Shown here piece by piece: positions 20,065-40,828 of a stretch of 64,000 nt of DNA. This DNA comes from Patescibacteria group bacterium (GTDB taxonomy: Bacteria > Patescibacteriota > Patescibacteriia > Patescibacteriales > UBA12465): NCBI GenBank assembly GCA_028687275.1, contig JAQUAK010000001.1, positions 100,213 through 164,212 on the forward strand, in the 5' to 3' direction. The notes under the pieces are model-generated. The model searched no databases, had not been told where the DNA came from, and saw only the letters and a list, made by a program, of their open reading frames with translations. A program made the translations under genes and the position numbers. The stretch's first letter is position 1. Each line of letters opens with the position of its first letter.

Positions 20065-20076
20065 TTAATCTTAATT

Positions 20077-20460: not shown

Positions 20461-20466
20461 CTATAT

Positions 20467-22224: not shown

Positions 22225-22228
22225 ACTT

Positions 22229-23437: not shown

Positions 23438-23647
23438 AAAAGATAAAAAGTATTGCCCCACCTTTTGTTTTATGTTAAAATAATAATAGTTCAGTTATTA
23501 CCGTATTATTAATTAGCTAGGGCTTGCTGAAGTTTGCTCTTAATGCTAATATTAACAATGTAAGTTGTATTGCTGCTTATAGAAATTAAATCAATTTTAA
23601 AATATATTATTTTTCCGCTGTTTAGGCGGTTGCTAAGTTCAAAATTT

Positions 23648-24085: not shown

Positions 24086-24104
24086 TTTAAAACAAATATT
24101 GTTT

Positions 24105-24137
24105 AAACCTTCCTCTTTGAAAGAGGAAGGTTTTTTG
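24105..24137 (+). terminator. rho-independent terminator after the pilin gene
   Basis: aaaccttcctct-ttgaa-agaggaaggttt followed by a T-run. Confidence 0.8.
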
Positions 24138-24169
24138 TTTGCGTCCTGGCCTTATGCTATAATAAGTTT

Positions 24170-25159: not shown

Positions 25160-25165
25160 TTATTT

Positions 25166-25621: not shown

Positions 25622-25624
25622 CTT

Positions 25625-27010: not shown

Positions 27011-27021
27011 TTATCTATTTA

Positions 27022-27552
27022 ATGTCTAAATTTTTTAAATACAAAAGAAATAATTTAAATTTACCTGCCTTTAGTCTGGTTGAAATTATGGCGGTCATGT
27101 TAATTGTATCTTTGGGTTTAGTGGGGACAGTTAATTTAGCTATTCAAAATATTCAAGCTCAGACTATTAATAATGATAATTTAGTTGCCTATCAATTATC
27201 CCAAGAGGGTTTAGAATTAGTAAGGCAAATAAGAGATACCAATTGGTTGCAAGGCAATGATTGGTTAGATGGCCTCGGTTCTAATCGCTATTGTCTTGAT
27301 TATCGCAACTTACCACCGGTAGTAGTGGCGGCAGTTAATAGTTGCTCTTTGTATTTAGACGAAAATAATTACTATTATAGCCCAACTATTGACGGCAGCT
27401 TATCAACTGCAAATGGTAGTAAATTTTCTCGCATCTTAGAAATTAATGCTGCCACTTCTAGCGCTTCGGTGAAATCAATTGTGAGTTGGGTGGGTAGAAA
27501 TAATTCGGTGCACAGTTATACTGCCGAAACTCAGTTGTATGATTGGTATTAA
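27022..27552 (+). CDS. minor (pseudo)pilin
   Basis: Prepilin-type N-terminus LPAFSLVEIMAVMLIV. Confidence 0.75.
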   Translation: MSKFFKYKRNNLNLPAFSLVEIMAVMLIVSLGLVGTVNLAIQNIQAQTINNDNLVAYQLSQEGLELVRQIRDTNWLQGNDWLDGLGSNRYCLDYRNLPPVVVAAVNSCSLYLDENNYYYSPTIDGSLSTANGSKFSRILEINAATSSASVKSIVSWVGRNNSVHSYTAETQLYDWY

Positions 27553-27564
27553 GTCTATATTTTT

Positions 27565-28128
27565 ATGAAAAGAAACAGATGTAATTTAGGTTTTTCTTTA
27601 ATTGAATTGATTGTTAGTATTAGTATTATCACTTTGTTAACTACAATTTTTTTAGCCAACTATCATACCATTAATCGACGTACTGATTTAACTATGACTG
27701 CTCAAGTGTTGGTAACGGATATTAGAACGGCTCAATCTAACGCTCTGGGACTTATTCAATATGATGGTGAAATACCAGCCGGCGGTTGGGGGGTATTTTT
27801 ATCTCGTTATGATGATGAAAATGATAAATATATTATTTTCGCGGATGTTGATGGTACCCAGGATTATTCTGGCGATGAATCGGCCACACAGTTTGGAGCG
27901 AAGACAGTTAATTTACCTCCAAAAATTACTATTGATAGCTTGCGTACACAAAACAATCAAGAGGTGGAAAAAGTTAATATTATTTTTCTGCCCCCCGATC
28001 CATTAACCTATATTATTACTGAGTTTGGTACTACTACGGCTATAAATATTCGCTTGAAAGAATCTTTGAATAATACTACCAAAACAGTACGGATTAACTT
28101 TCTTGGTTTAGTTGAGGTGATTGATTAA
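27565..28128 (+). CDS. minor (pseudo)pilin
   Basis: Prepilin-type N-terminus NLGFSLIELIVSISIITLL. Confidence 0.8.
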   Translation: MKRNRCNLGFSLIELIVSISIITLLTTIFLANYHTINRRTDLTMTAQVLVTDIRTAQSNALGLIQYDGEIPAGGWGVFLSRYDDENDKYIIFADVDGTQDYSGDESATQFGAKTVNLPPKITIDSLRTQNNQEVEKVNIIFLPPDPLTYIITEFGTTTAINIRLKESLNNTTKTVRINFLGLVEVID

Positions 28129-28135
28129 TTGAAAT

Positions 28136-28699
28136 ATGAAAAAGTCTAAGCAGCAATATTCCAAACAGGGAAATACTTTAATTGAGGTGATTGTCTCTAC
28201 CGCTCTTTTCGTTGTGATTATGCTTTCAATGACCCAGATTTTTAAAATGATGCTTGATTACCAACGTCAGGCAATTGCCACTCAGAATGTTCAGGAAAAT
28301 TTAAAATACTTTTTCGAGGTGATATCTAAAGAACTAAGAACCGCTAAACGGGCGAATAGTAGTTGTGCTAGTTTGCCGGCTAATGCTCGCTTTCTGCGAG
28401 AGAGTAATACCTATGGTGAGGTTCTGCATTTAAAAAATTATCATGATGAGTGCGTTACCTATTCCTTAGATGATGATAACGGAGTGATTCGTTTTAAAGT
28501 AGAAAGAGGTGGTTATGGTGGTTATCTATCGCCCGCCCAAATAAATATTAGTGACCTACATTTTCTTGTTCGTGAGGAAAATGACCAACAGGCTTTTATT
28601 ACCATTAATATGGGCGCCCATTCAGTTGGTCGAGAGGCTAGTTACTCACAGATGTATTTGCAAACCACCATCACCTCACGTTATTATCGCGATAATTAA
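28136..28699 (+). CDS. minor (pseudo)pilin
   Basis: Prepilin-type N-terminus QGNTLIEVIVSTALFVV. Confidence 0.75.
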   Translation: MKKSKQQYSKQGNTLIEVIVSTALFVVIMLSMTQIFKMMLDYQRQAIATQNVQENLKYFFEVISKELRTAKRANSSCASLPANARFLRESNTYGEVLHLKNYHDECVTYSLDDDNGVIRFKVERGGYGGYLSPAQINISDLHFLVREENDQQAFITINMGAHSVGREASYSQMYLQTTITSRYYRDN

Positions 28700-28700
28700 T

Positions 28701-29075
28701 ATGAAAATAAGGATAAAGGTTAAAACTAGCGGTAGCGCCTTAATGTTAACTCTTTTTATTTTGAGTGCGGTTATGTTGATTGTAATTGGTGGCGCGACGA
28801 CGATTGCGGCTGGTTTAAGAATGGGGACTATCCAGGCTCAATCTACACGTGCTTATTTTGCGGCTGAGGCGGGCGCAGAAAAATTGTTGTATGAAGTCAG
28901 GCAGGGTGGTAATTTTACCGATTTATCTCATCCTGGTGAGCAGAATATTTTTGGCACCACCACCCTCTCAATTGGCGCTGGCTATATTGTTAATTATGAC
29001 TCCTTTCCACCTTTTGTCTTTACTAGTATTGGTCACTATCGAGGTACACAGAGAAGTGTAGAATTAGATTTTTAA
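28701..29075 (+). CDS. PilX-like minor pilin / pilus-associated protein
   Basis: I chose the start at ATG 28701 (MKIRIKVKTSGSALMLTLFILSAVMLIVIGG), which gives a hydrophobic N-terminal helix. The longer ORF-track start would overlap the previous gene. Confidence 0.55.
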   Translation: MKIRIKVKTSGSALMLTLFILSAVMLIVIGGATTIAAGLRMGTIQAQSTRAYFAAEAGAEKLLYEVRQGGNFTDLSHPGEQNIFGTTTLSIGAGYIVNYDSFPPFVFTSIGHYRGTQRSVELDF

Positions 29076-29099
29076 CATATTTTTAAATCTTATAGAAAC

Positions 29100-29122
29100 G
29101 CCTCTTCTAAGAGGCTTTTTTT
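29100..29122 (+). terminator. rho-independent terminator ending the pilus cluster
   Basis: gcctc-ttctaa-gaggc followed by T7. Confidence 0.65.
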
Positions 29123-29301
29123 ATTGCTGATAATTGATAAAATTTATCACTTTTAAGACTTTCCTTGATTTAAAAAAAATGATATAATTCTATTATAAAA
29201 TCAGATGTTTGAATTCAAGGATTTACCTTTTTTTCTTAATAAAAATTACAGTTAATTTTAACTGTAATTAGACATTGATTATAAGCATCTTGCTTGTGCA
29301 G

Positions 29302-32300
29302 ATGAAATTAAAAGCAACAAAAAAAAGTATTTTGAAGCTTCCTTTAGAGTTGCTATTTTTTGTTATCTTGTTTGCTTTTATTTTTATCGCTTATACTCCA
29401 GCTCAAGCTATTATTAATGATTATAATAAAATTACCGGTAGTCGTTTGGAGGCAGGCGAATGGAATATGCTAATACAGGATTTTGTCACTAAAAATAATG
29501 GTGGTGATGTTATGATTGGTAATTATGGTATTAATACCGCCACCTCCTCAGCTTTTGCTTTAGATATTAATGGAAGTTTAAGAGCTAGTAATATAACGGG
29601 TGCTTATACTGGCACCATCAGTGCTGATAATGTTTCAGCCGGTGACTTTGGCTCTGAAACTATGGGTGGTGATTATACTTTTTCTGGGAAGGTGGGGATT
29701 GGAACGACAGCACCTTCAACGAAATTACATATTACTGGGGACACAAATACTATTGGCCAAATAGAAACAACTGTAAATGGTGGGACCGCTGTTTTAAGAT
29801 TAGATGCAAATCCTAATTATTGGGATATTAAGAATTATGGAGCGTCTGCTTCTTTAGGATTTATAAGAGGAACGACGGAGCATATGACTATTTTAAGTTC
29901 CGGCAACGTCGGTATTGGGACGACTAATCCTGGACAGAAATTGGATGTGAATGGTCAATCTATTTTTAGGGGGCAAATGAGAATTGGCGATTCTTCTGAT
30001 GGAATGGCTTATTCATATTCTACAGGGAAAGCTACCATAGTAGGAATTGATAATGGATTAAGTGGATATAATGATTTGGACATTCGTTCTCAGGGAGCAA
30101 CACAGCTATATTTATCAACGAACGGCAACGTTGGGATTGGGACGACTAATCCAAGCGAAAAGCTAAGCGTTATAGGCAATATTGATTTTCCAAAAGCTAC
30201 CAGTGGTTCAAAAATAAGTTTTGAGGGCTCCTATAATCAGCAGATGTATTTAGATTATGATTATAATAATGTTTCTGGGTTTGATGTCTTTGCTATTAGG
30301 TCAAATGGTGGAACAAATAGACTGCATATAAGTAATAACGGTACTACTAGTTTGGTTCCAAGTGGTGGCAACGTCGGTATTGGCACTACCACCCCGGCTT
30401 CTACCCTAGATGTTAATGGTTTAATTAAAATGCGTAGCGCAACTATTACTCAGGGTGAGGATGTAATTAACAAAGATTATTTAGATGCTTCTTTGGCTAG
30501 CACCACTGCTGGAATTATTTATGAGATGGCAACTAGTAGTATTTGGCAGGGAAGTCTAACTGGTAATGTCTATAATGCTAATACTGGCAATGTTGGTATT
30601 GGAACGACGAATCCACAGCAAACTCTTCATATTTCTGGCTCTGCTAGTGGTAGTTATATCGCTGGAAGAATTGAGAATACTGCAGCAAGCGGTGCAGCAG
30701 ATTTTGATTTTAAAAATGGTGCGCAAATGTGGAAAATGGGGGTTAATACATTAAATCAATTCCGTGTACGTGATGATACAAATGCTGCAAATGTTATGTT
30801 GATAGAAAGTGGCGCCGGGGCAAATGCATTTTTTATAAAATCTGGAGGCAATATAGGGATTGGGACGACGAATCCGTCAGCAAAATTAGATATTCAAGGC
30901 ACAACTGGTGGCACGGCAGCCTGGTTTAGAGGAGGAAATTCGGCTTTTAATATTCAAACAAAGGATAATTTAATTGAGTTGGTTAGTTTTAATGGTTCTA
31001 CTTATTCTCCTATTAATATTAGAGCTGCTGGCTCAGGTTTAACTATTGATACTTCCGGTAATATTGGCATTGGCACAACCAACCCAACCACTAAATTATT
31101 TGTTAATGGTGGCACTGGTGATGCAGTTAATGTTGGAGGAGGAAGAATTCGTGGTTTAAATACTACTCCAGTTAATGCTGATGAAGCCGTACCTTTAACT
31201 TATCTACAAAGTAATTATGCCCCTATTGGTTCTGGAGCTGGCTCTGCCTTTGTTCAAGGTGGTAATTCTTTTGGATCTATTGCTAACTTAGGTACTAATG
31301 ACAATTATCCTTTAAATATTGAAACTAATAATGCTATTAGAATGACAGTATTGGGTAATGGTAATGTGGGGATTGGGACTACTAACATATATACTAATGT
31401 AGTTGGACTACAAGTAAATGGAGTAAAAAGTAATCAGAATAAAGGCATTATTGGTGTGATGGACTCCACTTCTTTTGCGACAGGAGTCGGTGGACGAATA
31501 ATATTTGGCGGTAAGTATAATGCTTCTGGCGCAGAAATAGTGTTTGGTGGAATTGAAGGTTCTAAAGAAAATGCGACTGATGGTAATTATGCTGGAGCTC
31601 TTGTTTTAAGCACTGTTCCTAATTCGGGAAATGTCACTGAAAGAATGAGAATAACTAGCACTGGCAACGTCGGTATCGGCACCACTAACCCCACCACTAA
31701 ATTATATGTTAATGGTGGCACTGGTGATGCAGTTAATGTTGGAGGAGGTAGAATTCGTGGTTTAAATACAACTCCAGTTAATGCTGATGAAGCTGTACCT
31801 CTAACTTATCTACAGAGTAATTATGCTCCTATTGGTTCTGGAGCTGGATCTGCCTTTGTTCAAGGTGGTAATTCTTTTGGATCTATTGCTAACTTAGGTA
31901 CAAATGATAATTATCCTTTAAATATTAAAACAAACAACGCTACTCAGATGACAGTTTTGGGTAATGGTAATGTCGGGATTGGCACCACTGGGCCTACAGC
32001 TAAATTACATCTCGGAAGTGTTTCTCAAGATAGTTATGTTTTAAGAGCGGACTCTTCTCAGGGGCTTAGTTTATTTAGTATATATCAATCTGGTTCAACT
32101 GGTAGGGCGGTATTTAATTTAGCCAATGCGGGAACAACTACTATTAAGTTAGATACAAATGGTGATTCTTATTTTAATTCAGGCAACGTCGGTATCGGGA
32201 CGACGGCACCAGTTAGTGCATTAAATATTGTTGGAACAACTGATATTAGTTGGATTGATGGAACTAGTTATGGATTAGTTACAGTTGGCTCTCGAGGTGT

Positions 32301-35300
32301 AGGTGGAAGTTCGTTTTTTCTAAATACTCCTTCTGTTGCTTCTGCTGCTTCTGGTTTAGGATTAAAAGGGACATATGCCGCTGCTATCTCTACAATCAAT
32401 ATAAATGCATATGGTGTAAAGTATGCTGGATATGGTTCAAATTTGGCATTTTCTACTTCAAATGGTACCACTTTATCTGAGGCAATGAGAATAGATAAAA
32501 ACGGCAATGTCGGTATAGGCACCACCAACCCAACCACTAAATTATTTGTTAACGGTGGCACTGGTGATGCAGTTAATGTTGGAGGAGGAAGAATTCGTGG
32601 TTTAAATACTACTCCAGTTAATGCTGATGAAGCCGTACCTCTAACCTATCTACAAAGTAATTATGCTCCTATTGGTTCTGGAGCTGGATCTGCTTTTGTT
32701 CAAGGTGGTAATTCTTTTGGATCTATTGCTAATTTAGGCACCAACGACAATTATCCTTTAAATATTAAAACAAACAATGCTACTCAGATGACAGTTTTGG
32801 GTAATGGTAATGTTGGGATTGGAACGACTGCCCCAACAGCCGAATTACAAGTCAAGGGTACCGGGGGGACAATAAGTTTTGATGCAAGTTATAGTGCAAA
32901 TGGAGAAATTCCTGCAGGTTCCGCATTTTGGAATGTAGGTGGAAATTTTACAATGTTAGGAGACCCAACAGGAGTAGCTGGAAATAAATTAACTCTGGCT
33001 TATTATACAAATGGCAATGGCTGGAGATCGGCCTTGGATATTGCTAATACTGCAGAAGGAGCATATGGTAATTTATTATTAATGAAGTCTGGTGGTAATG
33101 TAGGGATTGGAACGACTAATCCAAGCGAAAAATTAACGGTAAGCAATGGAAATATAAAAATTGGGTCTCACGCAACAATAGGCAATGCTATTCTCGCTCC
33201 GTATCCATTAGGAGGATTAATAATAAAACCGGAATTTAATATTAATGATACAACTTCGGCTGTTTTGCAGATTCAAAAAAATGATAATAGTCCTTTGGTT
33301 ACATTCCAGGAAGATGGCAACGTCGGTATTGGCACAACGGCACCGGGAGCGAAGTTAGAATTAGCACAATCTGGTGACACGGAACAAAGCGGATTAAGAT
33401 TTACAAGAGTTGGGGCGACGAGAGCAAGTATCGCCTTAAGTGCAGCTTCTGGAAATTTGGAAATTGCAAGAGGAGGAACGTCAATAATATCAGTGGGCAC
33501 GAGTAACGTCGGCATCGGTACTACTAACCCAACTACTAAATTATATGTTAATGGTGGCACTGGTGATGCAGTTAATGTTGGAGGAGGAAGAATTCGTGGT
33601 TTAAATACTACTCCAGTTAATGCTGATGAAGCCGTACCTCTAACCTATCTACAAAGTAATTATGCTCCTATTGGTTCTGGAGCTGGATCTGCTTTTGTTC
33701 AAGGTGGTAATTCTTTTGGATCTATTGCTAATTTAGGCACCAACGACAATTATCCTTTAAATATTGAAACTAATAATGCCATTAGAATGACAGTATTGGG
33801 TAATGGTAATGTGGGGATTGGAACGACGAATCCAGAGGTAGATTTGGACATTCATAGAACTGGTCAGGGCTCAGCTTTTATTAGATTGTGGGACACAAGA
33901 AGCACCACTGGAGATACAGTGGGAATAAAAATGAGTACAGGCATTTCTACTCCAGATAAAACTGCTATTTTTCACAAAGAAACAGGCACTTATGGCGCTG
34001 GAGATATTGTTTTCGCTTTAAGTGGAAATACTGTTGACCCAGTTGATTTGATAAATGATGAAAAAATGAGGATTACAAAAGAGGGTAATCTTGGCATCGG
34101 CACTACCAACCCAACCACTAAATTATTTGTTAACGCTGGCACCGGTGATGCAGTTAATGTTGGTGGTGGTAGAATTCGTGGTTTAAATACTACTCCAGTT
34201 AATGCTGATGAAGCCGTACCTCTAACTTATCTACAAAGTAATTACGGTACAAGTGCGAGTGAATTATGGAAAGGAACTATTAATGGAAATATCTGGAATG
34301 GTGACAGCGGTGCGGGAAATGTTGGTATTGGGACGACGAATCCAGGGGATAAGTTGGAAGTTAATGGAGACGTCGGAATCATGAATGCAAGTAAATTAAA
34401 TTTTGGCTCGCAGTTACAAAATCCTCCCTATATTAAGGCTATCTGGAATGACAATAATAATACTGGCTTAGAGTTCCATACTTTTGCTGGCGCTGTTGAT
34501 ATCACTGCTTTAACATTAAGCAAAACAAGTGGTGCAATTACTGCCGCCGCAGAACTAAGGGTAAATGGAACAGGTAACTCTTCAATAGCAGGCAACGTCG
34601 GTATTGGCACTACCAATCCAGGCACCTATAGATTAAATGTGAATGGTAATACTAACATTAGTGGTGATTTAAACGTGACTGGGACAACAACTTCTTCAAG
34701 TTTTGTTGGTCCAATTGTGGGTACGATTTCGGCTGAGAATGTGTCCTCGGGTGACTTTGGGGCTGAGACTATGGGCGGTGATTATAGTTTTCCAGGGAAG
34801 CTGGGCATTGGGACCACTAACCCAAATGAAAATTTACAAATACATTCAAATTCTGGCTCAAAATCTCTAATTAGACTCACAAATGATTCTGAGTTAACTG
34901 GATTTGTGGCCGGCATTGATAATAGCGAAAGCGGATATTTTGGAACAGAGGGCCCGAGACAATTAAAAATAATAGCAAATAACGCAGAGGTTATTAGAGT
35001 TTCAACTTCAGGTAGCGTTGGGATTGGGACGATTAATCCTTTAGAAAAATTGGATTTAAGGGACGGTAATTTATATATCTCCGATTCAGATTTAGCAACT
35101 AATGGCGCCGGTGGATCCATAAAATTTGGTAGGCCGGAAGGCTATGCTTCCAATTGGCTGGCATCAATAGGTTCCTACGCTACTACAGGTTATGATCGTT
35201 TAGGTTTAACTTTTAATACTTCTTATGGAGTTACTCAAGAGAGAATGCGGATTACGCCAGAGGGCAATGTCGGCATCGGCACCACCAACCCAGGATCATA

Positions 35301-35745
35301 TCGCTTAAAGGTAGCTGGCGATGTGGCTATTACTGGAACCCTACAAACTCAAACTGGTTCTGACTTTGCTGAAGAATTTAGTGTTTCTGAAGATATATTA
35401 CCTGGCACGGTTGTAGTTATGTCAAATAAAGGGTATAAATCTGTACAGGCATCTAGTCGAGCCTATGATCAGACTGTGGTGGGTATTGTTTCTGATAATC
35501 CTTCAATTATTGCTGGTCGTGTTGATAGTGCTAAGAAAGTTGTGGTTGCTATGGTTGGAGTTGTGTCTGTTAATGTTAATAATAGTAATGGTAGTATTAA
35601 GCGGGGTGATCTTTTAACTACTTCTGCTGATTTAGGCATAGCCATGAAGTCAAAGGAATTTAAACCAGGTACAGTTATTGGTAAGGCGCTAGAAGATTTA
35701 AGGGGCAAATCTGGTCAAATTAAAGTACTGGTTAATTTGCAATAA
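29302..35745 (+). CDS. giant secreted repeat protein 1 (tail-fibre/adhesin-like, ~2147 aa)
   Basis: Uninterrupted ORF with signal peptide MKLKATKKSILKLPLELLFFVILFAFIFIAYTPAQA. It has dozens of GN[VI]GIGTTxPxxKL modules, five copies of the 162-bp cassette and a distinct C-terminal domain (GSDFAEEF..GDLLTTS..GKALEDL). Confidence 0.9.
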   Translation: MKLKATKKSILKLPLELLFFVILFAFIFIAYTPAQAIINDYNKITGSRLEAGEWNMLIQDFVTKNNGGDVMIGNYGINTATSSAFALDINGSLRASNITGAYTGTISADNVSAGDFGSETMGGDYTFSGKVGIGTTAPSTKLHITGDTNTIGQIETTVNGGTAVLRLDANPNYWDIKNYGASASLGFIRGTTEHMTILSSGNVGIGTTNPGQKLDVNGQSIFRGQMRIGDSSDGMAYSYSTGKATIVGIDNGLSGYNDLDIRSQGATQLYLSTNGNVGIGTTNPSEKLSVIGNIDFPKATSGSKISFEGSYNQQMYLDYDYNNVSGFDVFAIRSNGGTNRLHISNNGTTSLVPSGGNVGIGTTTPASTLDVNGLIKMRSATITQGEDVINKDYLDASLASTTAGIIYEMATSSIWQGSLTGNVYNANTGNVGIGTTNPQQTLHISGSASGSYIAGRIENTAASGAADFDFKNGAQMWKMGVNTLNQFRVRDDTNAANVMLIESGAGANAFFIKSGGNIGIGTTNPSAKLDIQGTTGGTAAWFRGGNSAFNIQTKDNLIELVSFNGSTYSPINIRAAGSGLTIDTSGNIGIGTTNPTTKLFVNGGTGDAVNVGGGRIRGLNTTPVNADEAVPLTYLQSNYAPIGSGAGSAFVQGGNSFGSIANLGTNDNYPLNIETNNAIRMTVLGNGNVGIGTTNIYTNVVGLQVNGVKSNQNKGIIGVMDSTSFATGVGGRIIFGGKYNASGAEIVFGGIEGSKENATDGNYAGALVLSTVPNSGNVTERMRITSTGNVGIGTTNPTTKLYVNGGTGDAVNVGGGRIRGLNTTPVNADEAVPLTYLQSNYAPIGSGAGSAFVQGGNSFGSIANLGTNDNYPLNIKTNNATQMTVLGNGNVGIGTTGPTAKLHLGSVSQDSYVLRADSSQGLSLFSIYQSGSTGRAVFNLANAGTTTIKLDTNGDSYFNSGNVGIGTTAPVSALNIVGTTDISWIDGTSYGLVTVGSRGVGGSSFFLNTPSVASAASGLGLKGTYAAAISTININAYGVKYAGYGSNLAFSTSNGTTLSEAMRIDKNGNVGIGTTNPTTKLFVNGGTGDAVNVGGGRIRGLNTTPVNADEAVPLTYLQSNYAPIGSGAGSAFVQGGNSFGSIANLGTNDNYPLNIKTNNATQMTVLGNGNVGIGTTAPTAELQVKGTGGTISFDASYSANGEIPAGSAFWNVGGNFTMLGDPTGVAGNKLTLAYYTNGNGWRSALDIANTAEGAYGNLLLMKSGGNVGIGTTNPSEKLTVSNGNIKIGSHATIGNAILAPYPLGGLIIKPEFNINDTTSAVLQIQKNDNSPLVTFQEDGNVGIGTTAPGAKLELAQSGDTEQSGLRFTRVGATRASIALSAASGNLEIARGGTSIISVGTSNVGIGTTNPTTKLYVNGGTGDAVNVGGGRIRGLNTTPVNADEAVPLTYLQSNYAPIGSGAGSAFVQGGNSFGSIANLGTNDNYPLNIETNNAIRMTVLGNGNVGIGTTNPEVDLDIHRTGQGSAFIRLWDTRSTTGDTVGIKMSTGISTPDKTAIFHKETGTYGAGDIVFALSGNTVDPVDLINDEKMRITKEGNLGIGTTNPTTKLFVNAGTGDAVNVGGGRIRGLNTTPVNADEAVPLTYLQSNYGTSASELWKGTINGNIWNGDSGAGNVGIGTTNPGDKLEVNGDVGIMNASKLNFGSQLQNPPYIKAIWNDNNNTGLEFHTFAGAVDITALTLSKTSGAITAAAELRVNGTGNSSIAGNVGIGTTNPGTYRLNVNGNTNISGDLNVTGTTTSSSFVGPIVGTISAENVSSGDFGAETMGGDYSFPGKLGIGTTNPNENLQIHSNSGSKSLIRLTNDSELTGFVAGIDNSESGYFGTEGPRQLKIIANNAEVIRVSTSGSVGIGTINPLEKLDLRDGNLYISDSDLATNGAGGSIKFGRPEGYASNWLASIGSYATTGYDRLGLTFNTSYGVTQERMRITPEGNVGIGTTNPGSYRLKVAGDVAITGTLQTQTGSDFAEEFSVSEDILPGTVVVMSNKGYKSVQASSRAYDQTVVGIVSDNPSIIAGRVDSAKKVVVAMVGVVSVNVNNSNGSIKRGDLLTTSADLGIAMKSKEFKPGTVIGKALEDLRGKSGQIKVLVNLQ
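31057..31218 (+). repeat. 162-bp cassette copy 1 (FVNGG variant)
   Basis: Encodes GNIGIGTTNPTTKLFVNGGTGDAVNVGGGRIRGLNTTPVNADEAVPLTYLQSNY. Followed by extension A, NIETNNAIR subtype. Confidence 0.95.
31663..31824 (+). repeat. 162-bp cassette copy 2 (YVNGG)
   Basis: In-frame near-identical copy. Followed by extension A, NIKTNNATQ subtype. Confidence 0.95.
32503..32664 (+). repeat. 162-bp cassette copy 3 (FVNGG)
   Basis: In-frame near-identical copy. Followed by extension A, NIKTNNATQ subtype. Confidence 0.95.
33502..33663 (+). repeat. 162-bp cassette copy 4 (YVNGG)
   Basis: In-frame near-identical copy. Followed by extension A, NIETNNAIR subtype. Confidence 0.95.
34084..34245 (+). repeat. 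162-bp cassette copy 5 (FVNAG)
   Basis: In-frame copy. Followed by extension B (YGTSASELWKGTINGNIWNGDSGAGNVGIG). Confidence 0.95.
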
Positions 35746-35757
35746 TTAATGTTATTT

Positions 35758-36036
35758 ACAATAAATATTTAAAGTATCATCCTCAAAACTCGCAAGAGGT
35801 ATTAACAGCCAGCGGGTTCTCATTATTTTAAACCGCTAATACCGGTTATGAGCAAATGAGCTGGTTATATTAGTCAGACGGGCGCTAAACCACTTTCGCA
35901 GTCGCGTTGACCACTGTTTATCACATTGCTGTGAACTAAAAGTCAAACACCATCACATGAAGACTCATTGTCAATAAAATTGTCTTTGGTTATATAATAC
36001 AAAGATCTTGAGGGTGATACTTTAAATATTTATTGT
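35758..36036 (+). ncRNA. candidate RT-associated structured ncRNA closed by a 29-bp stem
   Basis: Left arm 35758-35786 (acaataaatatttaaagtatcatcctcaa) is complementary to right arm 36008-36036, with 28 Watson-Crick pairs and one U-G pair. Internal hairpins lie at 35798-35843 and 35983-36005. No ORF is present. The unit starts 12 nt after the giant gene 1 stop and ends 14 nt before the RT ATG. Confidence 0.55.
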
Positions 36037-36050
36037 GTGCTTAAGAGCGG

Positions 36051-37286
36051 ATGACGCTCTTTTATATGTTCAAAAAGATTATTTCCAAAAAGAATTTAGA
36101 GGCGGCCTATTTAAAAATAGCGCAAGATATGGAACTCGATGGACGTTCCTATCGTTATCGTGGTTGGGATAATTGGAAATTGTCAGATTTAGAATTAAGG
36201 TCATCTGAAGTATTAGCAGAAATTCAACTTGAATTAAAAGAGTTTAAAGCCTTGGTGCCAGCTATATTGTTAAAGATTCCCAAGAAGAGTAATCCGCAGA
36301 AAGTTAGAGAAATTTACATTTATAACCTAAGAGAAAGAATTAAGGCGCAAGCAATATATCAAATCATTGAACCGATATTCGATCAATATTTTTCACCTTA
36401 CTTGTACTCATATCGTTCTTCTCATGCCAGCTATTTTGCCGCACGTAGCGTGGCACGTCATTACAAGAAATATCATCAACGTGATTATGTTTTAATTGGC
36501 GATTTATCTGATTACTCTAATTATATTGAGCATGAAAAGTTAAGAGAGAAAATTAGAATTTTAAATTTAGATAAAGAGGTAGAGAAATTATTATTCTTAT
36601 TTATAGGCAACGAAGTTGTACGCGATGGTGCTATTACTAAGCCAAAAGTGGGTTTAGTGCAGGGAGTCCCCTTAATTGCCTTGTTTAATAATTTGTATTT
36701 AGATGACTTTGATAAGTATGTTGGTCCGAAAACTGATTTCTATCGTCGTGTTGGTGATGATTTAATTATGTTTGCTTCTGACAAGGAACGCTTACTACCC
36801 TTACAACAGCATCTAATCGAAGAAGCTGATAATCTGGGCTTAAAAATTAATCAAGAAAAAAGCGCTTTACATCAACCAGATGAGGCTTTTGATTTTCTGG
36901 GCTACCATTTTTTTAAGGGTTTAATCTCTTTGCCGGATAATTATCAAAAAGCCTTAAAACTGAAATGGCGACAACAATTTTCATATTATTATAGACGTCA
37001 TGAAGATAGCAAAAAAAAGTATTTACAAAGAGTTATTCATCGTGATCGTCAGAACCTCAGAGAACAATTTGATCAATTGGCAGAACAAAAGAAGTTTGTT
37101 AATGATGAGAAGCAATTAAGGGATTTATCGGAAAGTTTTTTTCGTATTCTAACACGCTATTTTTTTAAAGATTATACGCCTAGAAATAGGCGTTTATTAC
37201 CAGCTAAGTTAAGGAAGATGGGGCTTACTTCTGTTTACAAACATTTTGTGAATACTCGTTATGACGCTTTCAAAGGAAAAAATTAA
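36051..37286 (+). CDS. reverse transcriptase (orphan; group-II-intron-like motifs; VGDD catalytic box)
   Basis: RT motifs 1-7 are present: IPKKSNPQKVREIYIYNLRERIKAQAIY, YSYRSSHASYFAA, VLIGDLSDYSNYIEH, GLVQGVPLIALFNNLYLDDFD, YRRVGDDLIMFA, GLKINQEKS and FDFLGYHF. A helical thumb-like C-terminus follows. There is no endonuclease domain. Confidence 0.9.
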   Translation: MTLFYMFKKIISKKNLEAAYLKIAQDMELDGRSYRYRGWDNWKLSDLELRSSEVLAEIQLELKEFKALVPAILLKIPKKSNPQKVREIYIYNLRERIKAQAIYQIIEPIFDQYFSPYLYSYRSSHASYFAARSVARHYKKYHQRDYVLIGDLSDYSNYIEHEKLREKIRILNLDKEVEKLLFLFIGNEVVRDGAITKPKVGLVQGVPLIALFNNLYLDDFDKYVGPKTDFYRRVGDDLIMFASDKERLLPLQQHLIEEADNLGLKINQEKSALHQPDEAFDFLGYHFFKGLISLPDNYQKALKLKWRQQFSYYYRRHEDSKKKYLQRVIHRDRQNLREQFDQLAEQKKFVNDEKQLRDLSESFFRILTRYFFKDYTPRNRRLLPAKLRKMGLTSVYKHFVNTRYDAFKGKN

Positions 37287-38964
37287 ATTAATGCAAAAGA
37301 GGCGACAGACGCGTTTAGACGATCGTCCTTTGTGGCCCTCAAAAGAGAATTTAAATTATCTACGTAATTTTTTTATCAAGGAAAAACGTCTACTTATTTT
37401 TAGTTTACTAGCCTTATTTGCACAAGGACTGCTGGAAGTGGCTTTAATTTTAATTAGTCATCGCTATTTAAAAACTAGTTCAGCTTTAGGGGCGATGACC
37501 AGCCAGGGCGGTCTTCTGGTTTTACTATTAATTTTTTCTCTACTCTATTTATTATCAGCTTATCGGGCTATTAAGGGTGAGCGTACTTTAATTGTTCGTT
37601 TGATTAATGATTTGCGTGAACGTTGGTTTCGCTTATTTGTGAATAAGCGCCCAGAAGAACATAATCTAGAGGGGAAGAGCATGGTGTTATCAAAAATTGC
37701 TTATCATTTACCTTTGTTAAGTACGGGCTTAAGCGCTTCTTTAGCTGGCCTAGTGCGTTGGTTGTTGTTGGTAGCAATTTTATTATTTTTATCTTTTACT
37801 TTTGGTTATCAATTATTATTATTTACTTTAGGGGCCGTTATTGTTGGTATTTTAATAGCCATAGGGGCGGGGCTAGTTTCCTATCGTTATGTGAGTAAGG
37901 AAACTACTTTCTATTCCCAGATTCTACGTTTCATTGATTTAAATTTATCTGATTGGCGTTTTGTGAAGTCATTTAGACGAGAGCGACCAGTGGTGGATGA
38001 ATTTAGAAAACTGGTTGATCTTGATTCTTTTTTTCGGGTACGTCGAGATTTATGGCTACGCTTTAGTGTGAGTTTAGTTTTTATTTTATTAATTTTTATT
38101 AGCTTTGGGGCAGGGGCAATGGGCACACAATTAGAATATTATTTTGGTACGGCTAGTAATGACGCCCGTTTTATTTTTATTATCGCACTGGTGTATTTTT
38201 CTCGTCTTTTATATGAAAGCTTACGTATTGGTTTATACTCAGTTCCTTTTGCTCTCGGTTTAAAGTTATCAGTACCAGAATTTATAGCTAGAAGATTGGG
38301 GAGAAGACAATTATTTAAAGCAGATAAATTAATTTTTAGTAGTAGTAAATCAAAGTTATTTAAACAGGCTAAAAGTTATCGCGCCTTTAGGTTTGAATTT
38401 GATAAAGGTGGTCGTTATCTATGTAGCGGTGTCGTTCGTTCAGGTAGAAGTTTATTGGCAAAATTGTTATGTGGGGAAGGGGTTTATGGTCGTCGAGCCT
38501 GGCTGTTAAAGGCGGGTGATAAGAAATATTTTTATAATGAATTCTTTGAGAAGTATGCTGGTTTTTATTATCTAGACCCTAATTTTACCAGCAGTCGTTC
38601 ATTACTAGAGACAGTTGTGGGCAAGGAAAAAACCGCTATTAATGAATTAGAATTTGCTCGTGCTTCAGGGCTTATAAATGAGCATAAACTTTTGCGAGAT
38701 ATATTTTCAGTTAAAGAAGATTGGCGTTTACGCGCTGATAAGTTTTTGGTAAATAGCAAGAACATCTTATTAATCCAGATCGTCTACTGTCTATTAAATA
38801 AGCCTTATTTAATTGCCCTAGATAATGCTTGGACTGATCGTCGGGATAAAGAAGTTGAAGACTTGTTATTATTGCTAGAAAAATTATTACCCGATACAAT
38901 TATCGTTGTGATGGCTGATAGGGAAAATAAATTATTTAATTACCGGGAGCACTATGAGATATAA
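37261..38964 (+). CDS. ABC-exporter-like membrane protein with degenerate nucleotide-binding domain
   Basis: An N-terminal ~6-TM region is followed by a C-terminal NBD-like region. In the NBD, Walker A reads GVVRSGRS (K to R), the signature position reads LVNSKN, Walker B reads LIALDN (E to N) and the H-loop position reads MADRE. An alternative ATG lies at 37291. Confidence 0.7.
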   Translation: MTLSKEKIKLMQKRRQTRLDDRPLWPSKENLNYLRNFFIKEKRLLIFSLLALFAQGLLEVALILISHRYLKTSSALGAMTSQGGLLVLLLIFSLLYLLSAYRAIKGERTLIVRLINDLRERWFRLFVNKRPEEHNLEGKSMVLSKIAYHLPLLSTGLSASLAGLVRWLLLVAILLFLSFTFGYQLLLFTLGAVIVGILIAIGAGLVSYRYVSKETTFYSQILRFIDLNLSDWRFVKSFRRERPVVDEFRKLVDLDSFFRVRRDLWLRFSVSLVFILLIFISFGAGAMGTQLEYYFGTASNDARFIFIIALVYFSRLLYESLRIGLYSVPFALGLKLSVPEFIARRLGRRQLFKADKLIFSSSKSKLFKQAKSYRAFRFEFDKGGRYLCSGVVRSGRSLLAKLLCGEGVYGRRAWLLKAGDKKYFYNEFFEKYAGFYYLDPNFTSSRSLLETVVGKEKTAINELEFARASGLINEHKLLRDIFSVKEDWRLRADKFLVNSKNILLIQIVYCLLNKPYLIALDNAWTDRRDKEVEDLLLLLEKLLPDTIIVVMADRENKLFNYREHYEI

Positions 38965-40168
38965 GTTTAAAAAATGGCGCCTATTAGTTGGGGTAGTGCT
39001 TTTTATACTTGCTCTTTTTATATTATCTCTATTATCACGTTGGGGTGCTCGTCTAATCGGTGATTGGTTGACTATAAAAAGCAAGCCGGCCTATTCAGTT
39101 GTTTCACCTACACCTCTAGAGGCAGATATTCTATTTAATGATGAGCCTGGGACAGAGATATTTTCTGAGCGCATAATTAAAGAGCTTAATTCTGCTAAAA
39201 AAAGTGTGGAAGTTGCCATGTATACCTTTAGTTCAGAAAAACTCAAGCAAGCTCTCTATCAGGCAAGTGACAGGGGACTTAAGGTAACTATTATCAGTGA
39301 TGTTAGTAACCATAATAGTAGTAGCTTATTCTTTGCTGAAGCTCCGGCTGATTTAATCTGGTTGGAAGCTGGTTCAAATAATGGTGGCAGAACTACTTTT
39401 ATGCATCATAAGTTTGCTATTATTGATCGCGGTGAAAGTGAACAAAAATTAATCTTCGGTTCTTATAATTGGACTGATTTACAGGAAAAGTATGACCCCA
39501 GTTTTCTAATGTTTAGTGCTAATGGGGATTTAATTAATAGTTTTGGTCGTGAGTTTGAGCGTCTAGTTAATGGTGATATGGGAATAAAGAAGCTAAATAG
39601 CCCAAATTATCATCCCTGGGATTTATCTTTACAAATAGAAGAAAATAATTATGAAGTTTGGTTTAGCCCTGGTCGTTTAGGTGATAGTGTGACTGCTCGT
39701 CTTGATTCTTTGATAAATAGTGCGACTAGCACGATTGATATTATGATTTGGGACTTTACCGATAAAGACTTAGCCCTAGATATTGTGCGACAAGCTCGAG
39801 CGGGCATTAAAGTGCGTTTGATTACTGATACTTGGAATTTTAACAATCAAAACTCAGTCTTTCGTTATCTATTAAGTGCTAAAGAGCGCTATAGTTTAGA
39901 TAACTTTGAGCTGATTTTAGATAAAGGTAATGGACTAGCTGTTAGCCAGATAAAGACGGACGCAGATTTAGAAGCTGATTTTGATCCCTTTCTGCATTAC
40001 CATGTTTTAATTGTTGATGATGCTCAAGTCTTGTTTGGTACTAATAATTGGAGCCGATCCGGTGCTTATTATAACGATGAATCAATTATAGTAACTAATG
40101 ATCAAGTTATTATCTCTAATTTTAAAGAGGCTTTTGCTAAGCAGTATAGGAATAATAAGCTTCAATAA
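38954..40168 (+). CDS. membrane-anchored phospholipase D-superfamily protein (two HKD-type lobes)
   Basis: N-terminal TM anchor. The first lobe is canonical (HHKFAIID..GSYNWTD). The second lobe is degenerate (HYHVLIVDD..GTNNWSRSG, K to H). Confidence 0.8.
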   Translation: MRYKFKKWRLLVGVVLFILALFILSLLSRWGARLIGDWLTIKSKPAYSVVSPTPLEADILFNDEPGTEIFSERIIKELNSAKKSVEVAMYTFSSEKLKQALYQASDRGLKVTIISDVSNHNSSSLFFAEAPADLIWLEAGSNNGGRTTFMHHKFAIIDRGESEQKLIFGSYNWTDLQEKYDPSFLMFSANGDLINSFGREFERLVNGDMGIKKLNSPNYHPWDLSLQIEENNYEVWFSPGRLGDSVTARLDSLINSATSTIDIMIWDFTDKDLALDIVRQARAGIKVRLITDTWNFNNQNSVFRYLLSAKERYSLDNFELILDKGNGLAVSQIKTDADLEADFDPFLHYHVLIVDDAQVLFGTNNWSRSGAYYNDESIIVTNDQVIISNFKEAFAKQYRNNKLQ

Positions 40169-40237: not shown

Positions 40238-40828
40238 ATGAACAGGGGGTTTAAGCAATACGTATCTAGTCATGGGCGCACTCTTCTAATGTCGGCTTTA
40301 ATTTTTCTATTGTTAGCAGTAGTGGCCGTCGGACCTTTGGTCTATAAAGTAATGGCTGATTTAAGTTCGGCTGAAGCCGAAGCGGTGCAGGCAAAGAATG
40401 CCGCTATTAGCCAAGCTATTATCAACGGAGATTACAACACTTGGAGCTCATTGGTTGATGATGATAAATTAAAAGCAGAGATTACCGCTGAAAATTTTGG
40501 CGCCTTTGCTCAAGCCTACGCTCTTTTAGAAAAAGGAGAAGTAGAGGTAGCTAATATTTTCAAGCAGCAGTTAAATTTGAAGCGTACTTATGATATTTCT
40601 ATGATGAAATCAGCTATTATTAGCTCTGCTATTGCCGAAGGTAATTATGATAAGTGGCGTAACGCTGTTGGCCAAGATTATGCTCCTGAAGTTACAAGTG
40701 GTAATTTTAAAGGCTATGCCGATATTTTACAAAAGATAAATAGAGGTCTTTTAAATAGATCTTCTAAAATACAGATAAATATGGGGCTTAAACAAAATTT
40801 AAATAGCTATTATAGCTCCAGTCATTAA
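40238..40828 (+). CDS. membrane-anchored helical protein with internal duplication
   Basis: It contains two related ~60-aa units, AISQAIINGDYNTWSSLV..ENFGAFAQAY and AIISSAIAEGNYDKWRNAV..GNFKGYADIL. Confidence 0.6.
   Translation: MNRGFKQYVSSHGRTLLMSALIFLLLAVVAVGPLVYKVMADLSSAEAEAVQAKNAAISQAIINGDYNTWSSLVDDDKLKAEITAENFGAFAQAYALLEKGEVEVANIFKQQLNLKRTYDISMMKSAIISSAIAEGNYDKWRNAVGQDYAPEVTSGNFKGYADILQKINRGLLNRSSKIQINMGLKQNLNSYYSSSH

Follow-up and report, generated by a model that had tools for sequence, protein, structure and literature searches.

A conserved, pseudoknotted RNA encoded directly upstream of a reverse transcriptase, akin to that of group II introns, in Patescibacteria

What is the role of a long inverted repeat that lies immediately upstream of a reverse transcriptase (RT) gene in a member of the Patescibacteria? 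The window, by which we mean the whole stretch of 64,000 nucleotides that was analysed, contains such a repeat, and the original prediction, made from the letters of the sequence, had read it either as a non-coding RNA comparable to those of retrons or DRT2 or as a miniature inverted-repeat element (MITE). The two arms, at 35758-35786 and 36008-36036, are each 29 nt long, 97% complementary and separated by 221 nt, exactly as had been described, and U35780-G36014, their sole non-Watson-Crick position, is a U-G wobble pair on the + strand. The 315-nt region folds with an energy of -93.6 kcal/mol, compared with -62.4 +/- 4.6 kcal/mol for shuffled sequences (z = -6.8), and none of 100 shuffles was as good. 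The helix formed by the arms, here called P1, is far beyond chance. The enclosed core is free of open reading frames, as claimed, with 3-8 stops per frame in all six frames. The features of the locus are as follows.

35758-35786, + strand: 5' arm of the closing helix P1, pairing with 36008-36036
35787-35798, + strand: A-rich linker (AA) and small hairpin P2 (CUC-GCAA-GAG), from sequence conservation and pairing
35799-35804, + strand: pseudoknot 5' strand GUAUUA, pairing with UAAUAC at 35837-35842
35807-35866, + strand: extended hairpin P4, whose terminal loop is the pseudoknot 3' strand (35837-35842)
35807-35813/35860-35866, + strand: P4a, a sub-helix of P4
35816-35824/35847-35857, + strand: P4b, a sub-helix of P4
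35832-35835/35843-35846, + strand: P4c, a sub-helix of P4
35867-35961, + strand: variable central insert ("cargo"), free to vary in length and sequence between loci
35962-35982, + strand: conserved block GACUCAUUGUCAAUAAAAUUG, predicted single-stranded, near-invariant in close relatives
35983-36005, + strand: hairpin P6, with compensatory changes at 7 of 8 pairs and 96.6% pairing
36008-36036, + strand: 3' arm of P1, pairing with 35758-35786, with U35780-G36014 as the lone wobble
36043-36065, + strand: terminator-like hairpin (36043-36061) and U-rich tail, from a consensus scan, ending at the RT start codon
36066-37286, + strand: RT (RVT_1, 2.4e-18; group II RT model, 123 bits)
37261-38964, + strand: ABCB-type half-transporter-like protein of 567 aa (ABC_membrane, 1.1e-9), overlapping the RT stop
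38954-40168, + strand: membrane-anchored PLD-family (NucT-like) protein of 404 aa (PLDc_2, 5.4e-38, in two stretches)

On the + strand, the repeat arms form helix P1 of an RNA with a conserved structure, in which P1, P2, P4 with its pseudoknot, the variable insert, the CUCAUUG block and P6 follow one another in this order. Covariation was assessed among 22 related loci whose RTs share 47-69% identity with that of the window. Over these loci, 95.3% of the cells in the structure are paired, as against 81.4% in shuffles and 31-47% with slid partners, and compensatory changes occur at 51 of 62 pairs, with none of 500 shuffles reaching any of five measures; RNAalifold, run independently, recovered double changes in 46 of 56 pairs. 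The structure had been proposed to be preserved at the RNA level, with compensatory changes in orthologous loci as the test, and that test bears the proposal out. The paired cells hold 124 G·U and 23 A·C combinations, an excess which indicates that the RNA is read in the sense of the RT.

Taken element by element, P1 is paired in 94% of cells across the 22 loci, with compensatory changes at 23 of 25 aligned pairs. An AAAAC linker that runs from the final bases of P1 into the opening bases of P2 is near-invariant together with the CUC/GAG stem (alignment A2), and because P2, at 95.5% paired, barely varies, covariation is uninformative on it either way. Compensatory changes are found at 17 of 20 pairs of P4, whose cells are 93.5-97.7% paired, and the domain is pseudoknotted because its terminal loop (35837-35842) pairs with 35799-35804. 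All cells of the six pseudoknot pairs are paired (100%), and four of these pairs have changed on both sides (e.g. C-G 15, U-A 7). A bulged hairpin had been drawn at 35798-35843; its GGUAUUA/UAAUACC pairing is real and co-varies, whereas gcgg/ccgc is not a conserved pairing and gives way to P4 and the pseudoknot. The second internal hairpin that had been drawn, at 35983-36005, is P6, and it too is real and co-varies. The central insert of the window has a fold stability within the range of shuffles (z = 0.94). Further 3', CUCAUUG with at most one mismatch is present at 35 of 81 loci, compared with 7 of 81 when shuffled, at a median of 44 nt ahead of the P1 3' arm; a search by eye for a tertiary partner of this block found none that was convincing. 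A hairpin just 5' of the block, P5, is visible in many sequences, and we left it uncounted owing to a register shift of the alignment at this point. The RNA yielded no identifiable template region, priming site or motif that would generate repeats.

The closing helix extends well beyond these relatives. At a score of at least 18, a P1-type helix was detected at 65 of 101 unique loci versus 1 of 101 shuffled controls, and at a score of at least 15 at 81 of 101 loci versus 8-10 in controls. Its family-wide medians are a length of 22 bp, 172 nt enclosed and a gap of 8 nt from the 3' arm to the RT start codon; this gap is below 22 nt in 60 of 81 loci. An inverted-repeat layout directly upstream of the RT, of the kind formed by the a1/a2 repeats of retrons, is therefore present family-wide and with covariation, and the notion that a long helix joins both ends of the core as those repeats do has held up. 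A covariance model of the 5' domain (R1, with P4 as its core), built from close relatives only, scored the window locus at 86.7 bits (E = 5e-16) and detected this domain on the + strand ~100-300 nt upstream of RTs only 35-45% identical. All significant model matches in 1.4 Mb of related loci are on the RT strand and upstream of an RT, and all but one lie less than ~600 nt from its start. The covariance-model search of the window and 135 loci (1.4 Mb) found no orphan copies of the RNA, in keeping with the single RT-linked copy on the RT strand that had been anticipated, and there is no second copy of the arms or core within the 64-kb window. These data show that the base pairing is under selection across the whole RT family, and that the RNA accompanies the RT instead of moving as a repeat of its own. 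Rfam gave no match at E <= 1 on either strand of window positions 34000-38000, and, in five diverse loci at E <= 0.1, only two sub-threshold chance matches elsewhere in the loci. INPHARED contained no DNA match to the RNA, and no description of the cassette or the RNA was found in the searchable literature.

Several loci depart from the simple arrangement of one RNA and one RT. Tandem copies of the RNA are found at L006/L074, L063/L075 and L033, where the scaffold is almost identical between copies and the central insert differs; a two-copy arrangement is common to two different genomes. The RNA of locus L022 comes with a terminator of its own and, with two inserted genes in between, is found 2 kb upstream of the RT. 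A hairpin and T-run of different sequence occupy the site equivalent to the window's terminator-like hairpin in the six closest relatives, and most of the family is without such a hairpin between P1 and the RT. Together, the layout of L022 and the terminator of the window subfamily indicate that the RNA can be a separate transcript. As for initiation, the promoter TTGTCA-17-TATATA that had been proposed within the unit did not withstand comparison: it is not conserved, it is absent from the consensus scan and its "-10" falls in the variable P6 loop. TTGTCA is part of the conserved RNA motif GACUCAUUGUCA. Hexamers resembling a -10 box occur upstream of P1 at 77 of 91 loci, at positions spread over 45 nt of AT-rich DNA.

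We consider the RT to begin most likely at the ATG at 36066, and not at 36051 as first suggested, because family members are 401-406 aa long and 36051 lies in the loop of the hairpin at 36043-36061. Judged by its sequence and predicted fold, the enzyme is group II intron-like and is not a retron, DRT2 or UG17 RT. It scores 123-128 bits against group II-type and generic RT models, of which 123 bits are against the group II model TIGR04416 (cut-off 300), and matches GsI-IIC at 111 bits by sequence and as a full-length fold (TM 0.81) that includes the thumb and C-terminal region. Group II RTs rank best by fold and DRT9 second-best, with retron RTs far lower, below the group II, DRT9, G2L4 and DGR RTs. 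The retron and DRT2 families that had been suggested do not fit: the RT scores 27.5 bits against NCBIfam retron_St85_RT (cut-off 235), 29 bits against Ec86, 26-31 bits against the PADLOC retron RT models and 36-39 bits against the Drt2 models (39 bits where the cut-off is 390). The NAxxH and VTG motifs, which define retron RTs, are not visible in the protein. Scores were 63 bits for the Drt9 model and 83 bits for RT_UG17, the latter below the generic RT and UG26 models; with the UG17-type SLATT-5 partner also absent, DRT10 (UG17) was rejected. The UG26 model reached 126 bits, over positions 56-314 of 398 only, a score roughly level with those of the generic RT and group II models and obtained with a model that has no cut-off; some UG26 members are associated with a Vsr endonuclease (PMC9226505), and no Vsr-like neighbour of the RT was found. 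G2L4 is distant (37 bits), and Cas6-RT-Cas1 (PDB) and PADLOC Cas1_IIIb score 100 and 97 bits, respectively. The next-best database proteins are 600-970 aa long with the match confined to the RT domain, and from this length and RT position we infer that they are multidomain fusions. G2L RTs are closest to group II intron RTs and are without the intron RNA structure (PMC8632793), and, judged by its sequence and fold matches, the RT fits this definition of a free-standing group II-like enzyme. Its catalytic motif is [V/C]GDD with invariant catalytic aspartates; as a full-length group II-type RT that retains them, it is presumably active. The RT family is discrete, with about 45-55 clusters at 50% identity. 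IMG/VR holds no relatives and INPHARED only distant RT-domain matches of 24-31% identity, so a phage origin was rejected.

Two further genes accompany the RT. The ABC-like gene adjoins it in 123 of 135 loci, and its product matches PglK over residues 119-566 and the ATPase domain of PCAT1 over 335-565. Among the matches listed, most of the 135 loci have the PLD gene on the downstream side of the ABC-like gene, as do three long contigs examined; the PLD protein has an N-terminal hydrophobic anchor, scores up to 93 bits against NucT models, below their cut-off, and contains two HKD-type motifs, an invariant HxK(x)4D and a second HxH(x)4D. On sequence grounds, the RT, the predicted ABC half-transporter and the predicted membrane-anchored PLD nuclease form a conserved cassette found mostly in Patescibacteria. 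Several genomes have 2-3 paralogous cassettes, and the within-genome paralogues are highly diverged, so that they do not reflect recent transposition. The gene neighbourhoods of the three long contigs showed no defence islands. Both in the window and among close relatives of it, the cassette is located at type IV pilus, DNA-uptake or surface-protein loci; a giant surface-protein gene ends 12 nt upstream of the RNA unit, an adjacency confined to close relatives. At 18 of 75 loci, genes resembling prepilins precede the cassette on its strand, a raw count without a genome-wide baseline that is suggestive of a pilin association, though not of a general one.

The explanation that we favour, at a probability of roughly 60%, is that this structured non-coding RNA of ~280 nt is the dedicated partner RNA of the RT and probably its template. 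By analogy with retrons and class 2 DRT systems, the RNA and RT would form a ribonucleoprotein, with the constant scaffold (P2, pseudoknot, P4, CUCAUUG block and P6) as a putative RT-binding platform. P1 would fix and protect both ends of the RNA and, as a near-perfect duplex of 22-29 bp, is a plausible RNase III processing stalk that would free the RNA from the operon transcript. In the window subfamily, the terminator after P1 may give rise to short RNA-only transcripts, and read-through to the RT mRNA. By the same analogy, the RT would copy part of the RNA into DNA, most likely the variable insert or the adjoining conserved single-stranded block, and the ribonucleoprotein or its cDNA may work together with the ABC half-transporter-like membrane protein and the membrane-anchored PLD-family nuclease. 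As the neighbourhoods examined are not defence islands, the analogy with retrons and DRT systems may not extend to function.

Readings in which the unit is a DNA element or the residue of one fared poorly. Inverted repeats around ~220 bp have the shape of a MITE, and a MITE, or another DNA transposon whose terminal inverted repeats measure 29 bp, would be expected in several dispersed copies with target-site duplications and to be conserved as DNA; here the arms differ between loci yet keep pairing through compensatory changes and G·U pairs, the latter in excess on one strand, the copy in the window is single and the significant matches in 1.4 Mb are all RT-linked and on the RT strand. As had been observed before, the window copy is without a target-site duplication or other flanking direct repeats, and, for the window and the 1.4 Mb of related loci, we reject the MITE alternative. 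The giant surface-protein gene followed by an RT likewise gives the locus the shape of a diversity-generating retroelement (DGR), with the unit as a template repeat targeting that gene. However, the gene adjoins only in close relatives, BLASTN of the unit finds no match to it, no 40-nt stretch of the window matches the core with adenine-only mismatches on either strand, and the RT matches group II RTs better than DGR RTs; in the absence of a target within the 64-kb window by either scan, the DGR was discarded, and the transposon and DGR readings taken together appear extremely improbable. We also regard as very unlikely that the RNA is a non-functional remnant of a group II intron or other retroelement, kept by linkage to the RT gene. 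The affinity of the RT to the RTs of group II introns and the paralogous cassettes of several genomes speak for such an origin, but the Rfam search for group II intron domains was negative on both strands of the window region and of the five diverse loci, the overlap of the RT gene with its downstream neighbour leaves no room there for domains V-VI, the abundant compensatory changes signify ongoing selection on the fold, and the trio of RT, ABC-like and PLD genes is kept intact throughout the family. A mobile group II intron was rejected on the score below the TIGR04416 cut-off, the absence of ribozyme domains and the lack of downstream room. The msr-msd RNA of a retron lies upstream of the RT and is transcribed together with it. 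A true retron, in which P1 would be a1/a2, the 5' domain msr and the insert msd, with priming from the 2'-OH of a branching G to yield msDNA, shares with our locus the inverted repeats, the upstream RNA on the same strand and the conserved 5' stem-loops followed by a variable segment. Against it stand the preference of the RT for group II-type and generic over retron models (123-128 versus 26-31 bits) and for GsI-IIC over Ec86 (111 versus 29 bits), its best fold match to a group II RT, the missing retron motifs and the linker after the 5' arm, which is a conserved AAAAC with no conserved unpaired G; there is little chance that this is a retron. A never-ending open reading frame of the DRT2 type over the whole core was likewise rejected, as a stop-free frame spans it at only 8 of 81 loci, in no consistent strand or frame, and at least three stops interrupt every frame of the window's core; a shorter sub-template would be compatible with these counts.

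A different case can be made for a purely cis-acting 5' leader of the RT operon that controls read-through or translation and is neither template nor separate RNA, for instance one that is bound by its own RT, in the way that the DIVa stem, which contains the RT start codon, is bound by the RTs of group II introns. DIVa-mediated autoregulation is established for the group II RT lineage, to which the RT here is akin. The proximity of the P1 3' arm to the RT start in most loci implies that the RNA is mostly the 5' leader of the RT mRNA, which could act only in cis, and that the translation initiation region is buried in or beside a very stable helix; the window subfamily, moreover, has its terminator-like hairpin between the structure and the ATG. 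Conversely, tandem copies that differ only in the central insert are hard to explain in this way, as is the RNA of L022, with its own terminator and two genes between it and the RT. Occlusion of a start codon would need far less than 180-300 nt of pseudoknotted fold with an insert that varies freely, and a closing helix of 22-29 bp is too stable for switching of the kind seen in riboswitch P1 helices. We consider an exclusively cis-acting leader unlikely, although a cis role and a role as partner and template are compatible and not mutually exclusive. A more speculative extension, which we hold to be distinctly improbable, is a non-immune system of RNA-templated DNA synthesis across Patescibacteria, in which a domesticated group II-type RT would copy an exchangeable cargo insert carried on the constant scaffold, sometimes from two tandem RNAs with different cargos. 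Handling of the resulting DNA at the envelope would fall to the ABC exporter-like protein and to the NucT-like PLD nuclease with its membrane anchor, and a functional link would connect the system with type IV pilus, DNA-uptake or surface-protein loci.

Should the RNA be the partner and template of its RT, its interest would reach beyond this locus. The pairs of an RT and a dedicated non-coding RNA (retrons, DRT2, DRT3, DRT9 and DRT10) each make DNA in a way of their own that had not been expected, and several now serve as tools of genome engineering. To our knowledge, these pairs all come from the retron or UG/Abi lineages; the present one would join a group II intron-type RT to a pseudoknotted RNA of its own and to two constant partner proteins associated with the membrane, in a cassette spread through the candidate phyla radiation. 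Because the genomes of this radiation are tiny, a conserved and sometimes multi-copy cassette of 4 kb is unlikely to be idle. The analysis delivers a well-supported secondary-structure model with testable parts (P1, the pseudoknot, the CUCAUUG block and the variable insert), and the natural variants, with tandem RNAs or separated RNA and RT loci, point to the probable site of the RNA's information-carrying part. It would add an RNA family missing from Rfam and an intermediate case in the domestication of group II intron RTs.

Among known systems, retrons resemble the cassette in having a structured RNA immediately upstream of the RT on its strand, inverted repeats that join its ends, conserved 5' stem-loops followed by a variable structured segment, and extra effector genes in the operon. 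They differ in that the RT here appears to be of a group II-like lineage, no priming G is conserved after the 5' arm, P4 is pseudoknotted, P1 has a greater length (median 22 bp) than the retron repeats, and an ABC half-transporter and a PLD nuclease act as the partners. Class 2 DRT systems, among them DRT2, DRT3, DRT9 and DRT10, offer a second parallel. DRT10 (UG17) combines a structured non-coding RNA and an essential basal stem with a membrane effector and templated repeat cDNA (bioRxiv 10.64898/2026.04.29.721553); the RT copies part of the RNA, the membrane protein is the presumed effector and the basal closing stem, essential there for RNA accumulation, has its counterpart in P1. UG17 was formerly classed as group II-like (G2L3), and DRT9 is the second-best fold match of our RT. 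Unlike DRT10, however, the cassette has no SLATT protein and instead has ABC-like and PLD partners, and its RNA is about twice as long and unrelated in sequence; the RT scores low against UG17, Drt2 and Drt9 (83, 36-39 and 63 bits), and, in contrast to class 2 DRT systems, the hosts are Patescibacteria and the neighbourhoods are not defence islands. CRISPR-associated RTs (RT-Cas1 and Cas6-RT-Cas1) are among the nearest sequence relatives of the RT, but it has no Cas1 or Cas6 domain and there is no cas gene among the three cassette genes. The closest likeness is to group II and G2L RTs, which provide the best match in both sequence and fold and, in the case of G2L, share the lack of an intron ribozyme. 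The RT here nevertheless scores below the group II cut-off, carries [V/C]GDD in place of YADD/YIDD and, unlike those enzymes, is accompanied by a dedicated structured RNA and two fixed partner genes.

The original prediction placed a long inverted repeat directly upstream of the reverse transcriptase (RT) gene, and both 29-nt arms are present exactly there (35758-35786 and 36008-36036), being 97% complementary, spaced by 221 nt and with a U-G pair on the + strand as their sole non-Watson-Crick position. The enclosed core is, as predicted, free of ORFs, every one of the six frames containing 3-8 stop codons, and no second copy of the arms or core was found elsewhere within the 64-kb window. The 315-nt region folds at -93.6 kcal/mol, compared with -62.4 +/- 4.6 kcal/mol for dinucleotide shuffles (z = -6.8). 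A terminator-like hairpin (36043-36061) followed by a U-rich tail lies 5' of the RT; as family members are 401-406 aa in length, the RT start was placed at ATG 36066, the listed start at 36051 falling in the loop of this hairpin. The elements of the structured RNA and the genes 3' of it are as follows.

Structured RNA and adjoining genes in the window
35758-35786 / 36008-36036, + strand: P1, the closing helix formed by the inverted repeat
35789-35798, + strand: helix P2
35799-35804 with 35837-35842, + strand: pseudoknot
35807-35866, + strand: helix P4
35867-35961, + strand: variable insert
35962-35982, + strand: conserved block GACUCAUUGUCAAUAAAAUUG
35983-36005, + strand: helix P6
36066-37286, + strand: RT
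37261-38964, + strand: 567-aa ABC half-transporter-like protein with an ABC exporter transmembrane domain, overlapping the RT
38954-40168, + strand: 404-aa PLD-family protein with an N-terminal hydrophobic anchor and two PLD-type motifs, overlapping the ABC-like gene

In 24 unique loci with RT identity to the window copy of 50% or more, the 300 nt upstream of the RT comprise strongly conserved blocks with a variable insert in between. RNAalifold predicted 56 pairs from a trimmed 22-locus alignment, 46 of which exhibit compensatory double changes. For pair counting we specified a fuller structure consisting of P1, P2, P4 (a hairpin in three parts), P6, and a pseudoknot in which the UAAUGC terminal loop of P4 pairs with GCAUUA immediately 5' of that hairpin. 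Standard pairs occupied 95.3% of 1353 cells across the 22 loci, compared with 81.4% in column shuffles, and sliding the partners by 1-3 columns reduced pairing to 31-47%. Covariation across related loci, which the original prediction had proposed looking for, was found, with changes on both sides at 51 of the 62 specified pairs, and none of 500 shuffles equalled the observed value on any of five measures. Pairing in the pseudoknot is 100%, with covariation at 4 of its 6 pairs. The paired cells include 124 G·U versus 23 A·C, which places the structure on the + strand, in the RT sense. The outer pairing of a bulged hairpin noted previously is real and corresponds to the pseudoknot, but its inner gcgg/ccgc stem is not the conserved pairing; an internal promoter proposed at the same time does not hold, as TTGTCA is part of the conserved block of the RNA and the '-10' falls in the P6 loop, which is variable.

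When a closing helix was required to end no more than 90 nt from the RT start, 81 of 101 unique loci had a helix score of at least 15 (shuffled sequences, 8/101; intragenic segments, 10/91) and 65 of 101 scored at least 18 (1/101 and 1/91, respectively). For the 99 loci with a score of 12 or more, median values were 22 bp for the length of the closing helix, 172 nt for the enclosed sequence and 8 nt for the gap to the RT start. P1 arm sequences diverge widely from subfamily to subfamily. A covariance model of the RNA 5' domain, trained on close relatives only, recovers this domain on the + strand approximately 100-300 nt upstream of RTs that are just 35-45% identical. All significant matches in 1.4 Mb of sequence lie upstream of an RT and on its strand, no further than about 600 nt from its start in every case except one, locus L022. 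Given these RT-linked matches, the single window copy, compensatory substitutions at paired positions, the excess of G·U on the RT strand and the failure to find direct repeats flanking the window copy, the MITE that had been offered as an alternative is rejected as far as the data reach. No Rfam 15 family matched the RNA, and no description of the RNA or the cassette was found in the searchable literature.

The ORF directly 3' of the RNA contains an RT domain that, at the sequence level, most closely matches those of group II introns. It scores 123 bits against the NCBIfam group II model (cut-off 300), and matches to PDB sequences include GsI-IIC (111 bits) and Cas6-RT-Cas1 (100 bits); scores are far lower for other lineages, including DRT2 and DRT9 (~49 bits), G2L4 (37 bits), the retron RT Ec86 (29 bits) and the NCBIfam St85 retron model (27.5 bits, cut-off 235). 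An AlphaFold model (pLDDT 90.3) superposes over its full length on the GsI-IIC RT (TM 0.81), with DRT9, group II RNP structures, G2L4, the DGR RT and retron RTs ranked below. The family is discrete, comprising ~45-55 clusters at 50% identity with a full-length match amongst 1.84 billion cluster representatives, and beyond it scores fall to ~130-160 bits for RT-domain-only matches in 600-970-aa proteins. Reverse transcriptases usually carry a YxDD catalytic motif; here it reads Y-R-R-[V/C]-G-D-D (residues 226-232), with the glycine invariant in the family. Also invariant is the aromatic residue Y150, located where the steric gate is expected, and one homologue, P0094, carries a precomputed RdRP_1 Pfam match. 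By record annotation the hosts are mainly Patescibacteria (Falkowbacteria, Magasanikbacteria, Parcubacteria and Peregrinibacteria); 'uncultured Gammaproteobacteria' labels on several AT-rich contigs appear to be placeholder taxonomy. No relatives were found in viral contigs or phage genomes. One clear member resides on a 2.96-Mb Longimicrobiales contig (L062). This locus is GC-rich, lies outside the Patescibacteria, and has a 27-bp P1 of entirely different sequence, suggestive of horizontal transfer of the whole RNA and RT unit.

An ABC half-transporter-like gene is found 3' of the RT in 123 of the 135 fetched loci, followed in most by the PLD gene. The ABC-like family profile matches whole ABCB-type half-transporters, nucleotide-binding domain included (residues 119-566 against PglK; 335-565 against the PCAT1 ATPase domain). 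Walker A is SGKT in the family consensus, degraded to SGRS in the window copy, and the Walker B position is IDN across the whole family; the missing catalytic glutamate suggests that the protein binds nucleotide without normal hydrolysis. The PLD-family protein is similar to the NucT and DrmC nucleases, with scores below cut-offs, and given its N-terminal membrane anchor may face outwards. In 16 of 16 aligned sequences the second HKD motif of this protein reads HxH(x)4D, not HxK(x)4D. A 196-aa membrane or secreted protein without a family match, encoded 3' of the PLD gene (40238-40828), is kept at that position in 27 loci of closer subfamilies, where it may be a fourth cassette member.

The window cassette is located within a same-strand cluster of type IV pilus genes and giant secreted proteins (17737-35745 and 40238-62925).

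Genes of the surrounding cluster
17737, same strand as cassette: PilM-like gene
20467, same strand as cassette: PilB-like ATPase
22214, same strand as cassette: PilC-like gene
23570 and 27565, same strand: prepilin-motif proteins, with pilin-like neighbours at 27022 and 28136
Within the cluster: giant secreted proteins of 2156, 1616, 1293 and 1364 aa
40854-42094: small secreted cupredoxin-like proteins

The giant gene upstream (29275-35745) adjoins the cassette only in close relatives. Defence islands were not seen in the three long-contig neighbourhoods examined, which comprise a type IV pilus operon in which the cassette comes directly 3' of PilC (L136), housekeeping hydrolases (L138), and giant surface proteins with IS200, DprA and a ComM-like gene (L140). 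In 18 of 75 unique loci, prepilin-like genes are encoded 5' of the RNA in the same orientation. The product of the gene just 5' of the RNA, as in L022, L035 and L103, often has a similar peptide at its C-terminus (...SDHF[VL]NxV.A.C...C).

The main rival explanation remains a cis-regulatory leader of the RT, which could coexist with a partner role. P1 lies less than 22 nt from the RT start codon in 60 of 81 loci, so that most family members have the RNA as the physical leader of their RT mRNA, an arrangement shared with retron msr-msd RNA; this position is compatible with cis regulation, but the size and complexity of the fold are hard to reconcile with it, as are two natural variants. In L022 (3803-6000) the RNA (3803-3975) has its own terminator, and two inserted genes (4070-5065 and 5093-5992), whose products have prepilin-type N-termini, lie between it and the RT, so that the RNA can be a separate transcription unit. 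The interval between P1 and the RT start also holds a terminator-like hairpin, differing in sequence, in the window and its six closest relatives. The other variant consists of two tandem RNA copies 5' of a single RT (L006 905-1523, same in L074; L063 5375-6000, same in L075; L033 5600-6000). These copies are near-identical in P1, P2, the pseudoknot, P4, the CUCAUUG block and P6, and differ in the central insert and by compensatory changes; the RNA looks like a constant scaffold with variable cargo. The two-copy arrangement is common to two different genomes, and the similarity of copy 1 in L006 to copy 1 in L063 indicates that the duplication is old and retained. Single MAGs also harbour two or three diverged paralogous cassettes (L006/L009, L007/L018, L035/L043, L017/L045 and L051/L056/L058); every such cassette has an RNA of its own, and the P1 sequences differ. 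We consider it likely that the RNA is a partner of the RT and not a leader alone.

Membership of known systems was weighed against the same evidence. The layout of RNA and RT is that of a retron, as the original prediction had suggested, but the RT falls outside the retron clade and the RNA lacks a conserved priming G after the 5' arm. The suggestion of a DRT2-type rolling-circle gene fares no better, as no frame is open across the window core, any open frame across the core occurs in just 8 of 81 loci without consistency, and the DRT2 score is ~49 bits versus 111 for GsI-IIC. No window stretch matches the core with mismatches confined to adenines, as a DGR would have it, and an intron remnant is unlikely given that no group II intron domains were detected and there is no room for them 3' of the RT. 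The evidence strongly supports reading the inverted repeat as RNA; it does not support a MITE or a DGR, nor membership of the retrons or of DRT2.

Collectively, the data show that selection maintains a pseudoknotted RNA on the strand of the RT, and that this RNA is co-inherited with the group II-type RT and with the genes for the ABC half-transporter-like protein and the PLD nuclease; we are nearly certain that this is a functional structured RNA tied to the RT. A dedicated RT partner RNA that is a probable template is our best overall explanation, with a probability of roughly 0.6; use of the RNA as a template, judged separately and by analogy, has about an even chance. If retrons and class 2 DRT systems, including DRT10/UG17, are a guide, the scaffold would bind the RT, P1 would define and protect the RNA ends, possibly as an RNase III processing stalk, the RT would copy part of the RNA into DNA, and the RNP or its cDNA would act with the two membrane-associated partner proteins. 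In DRT10/UG17, the ncRNA requires a basal stem and the RT produces templated repeat DNA (bioRxiv 10.64898/2026.04.29.721553). The pairing of an RT with a dedicated structured RNA is a known theme, and what differs here, in hosts from a poorly studied part of the bacterial tree, is the RT lineage, the new RNA fold and the new partner proteins.
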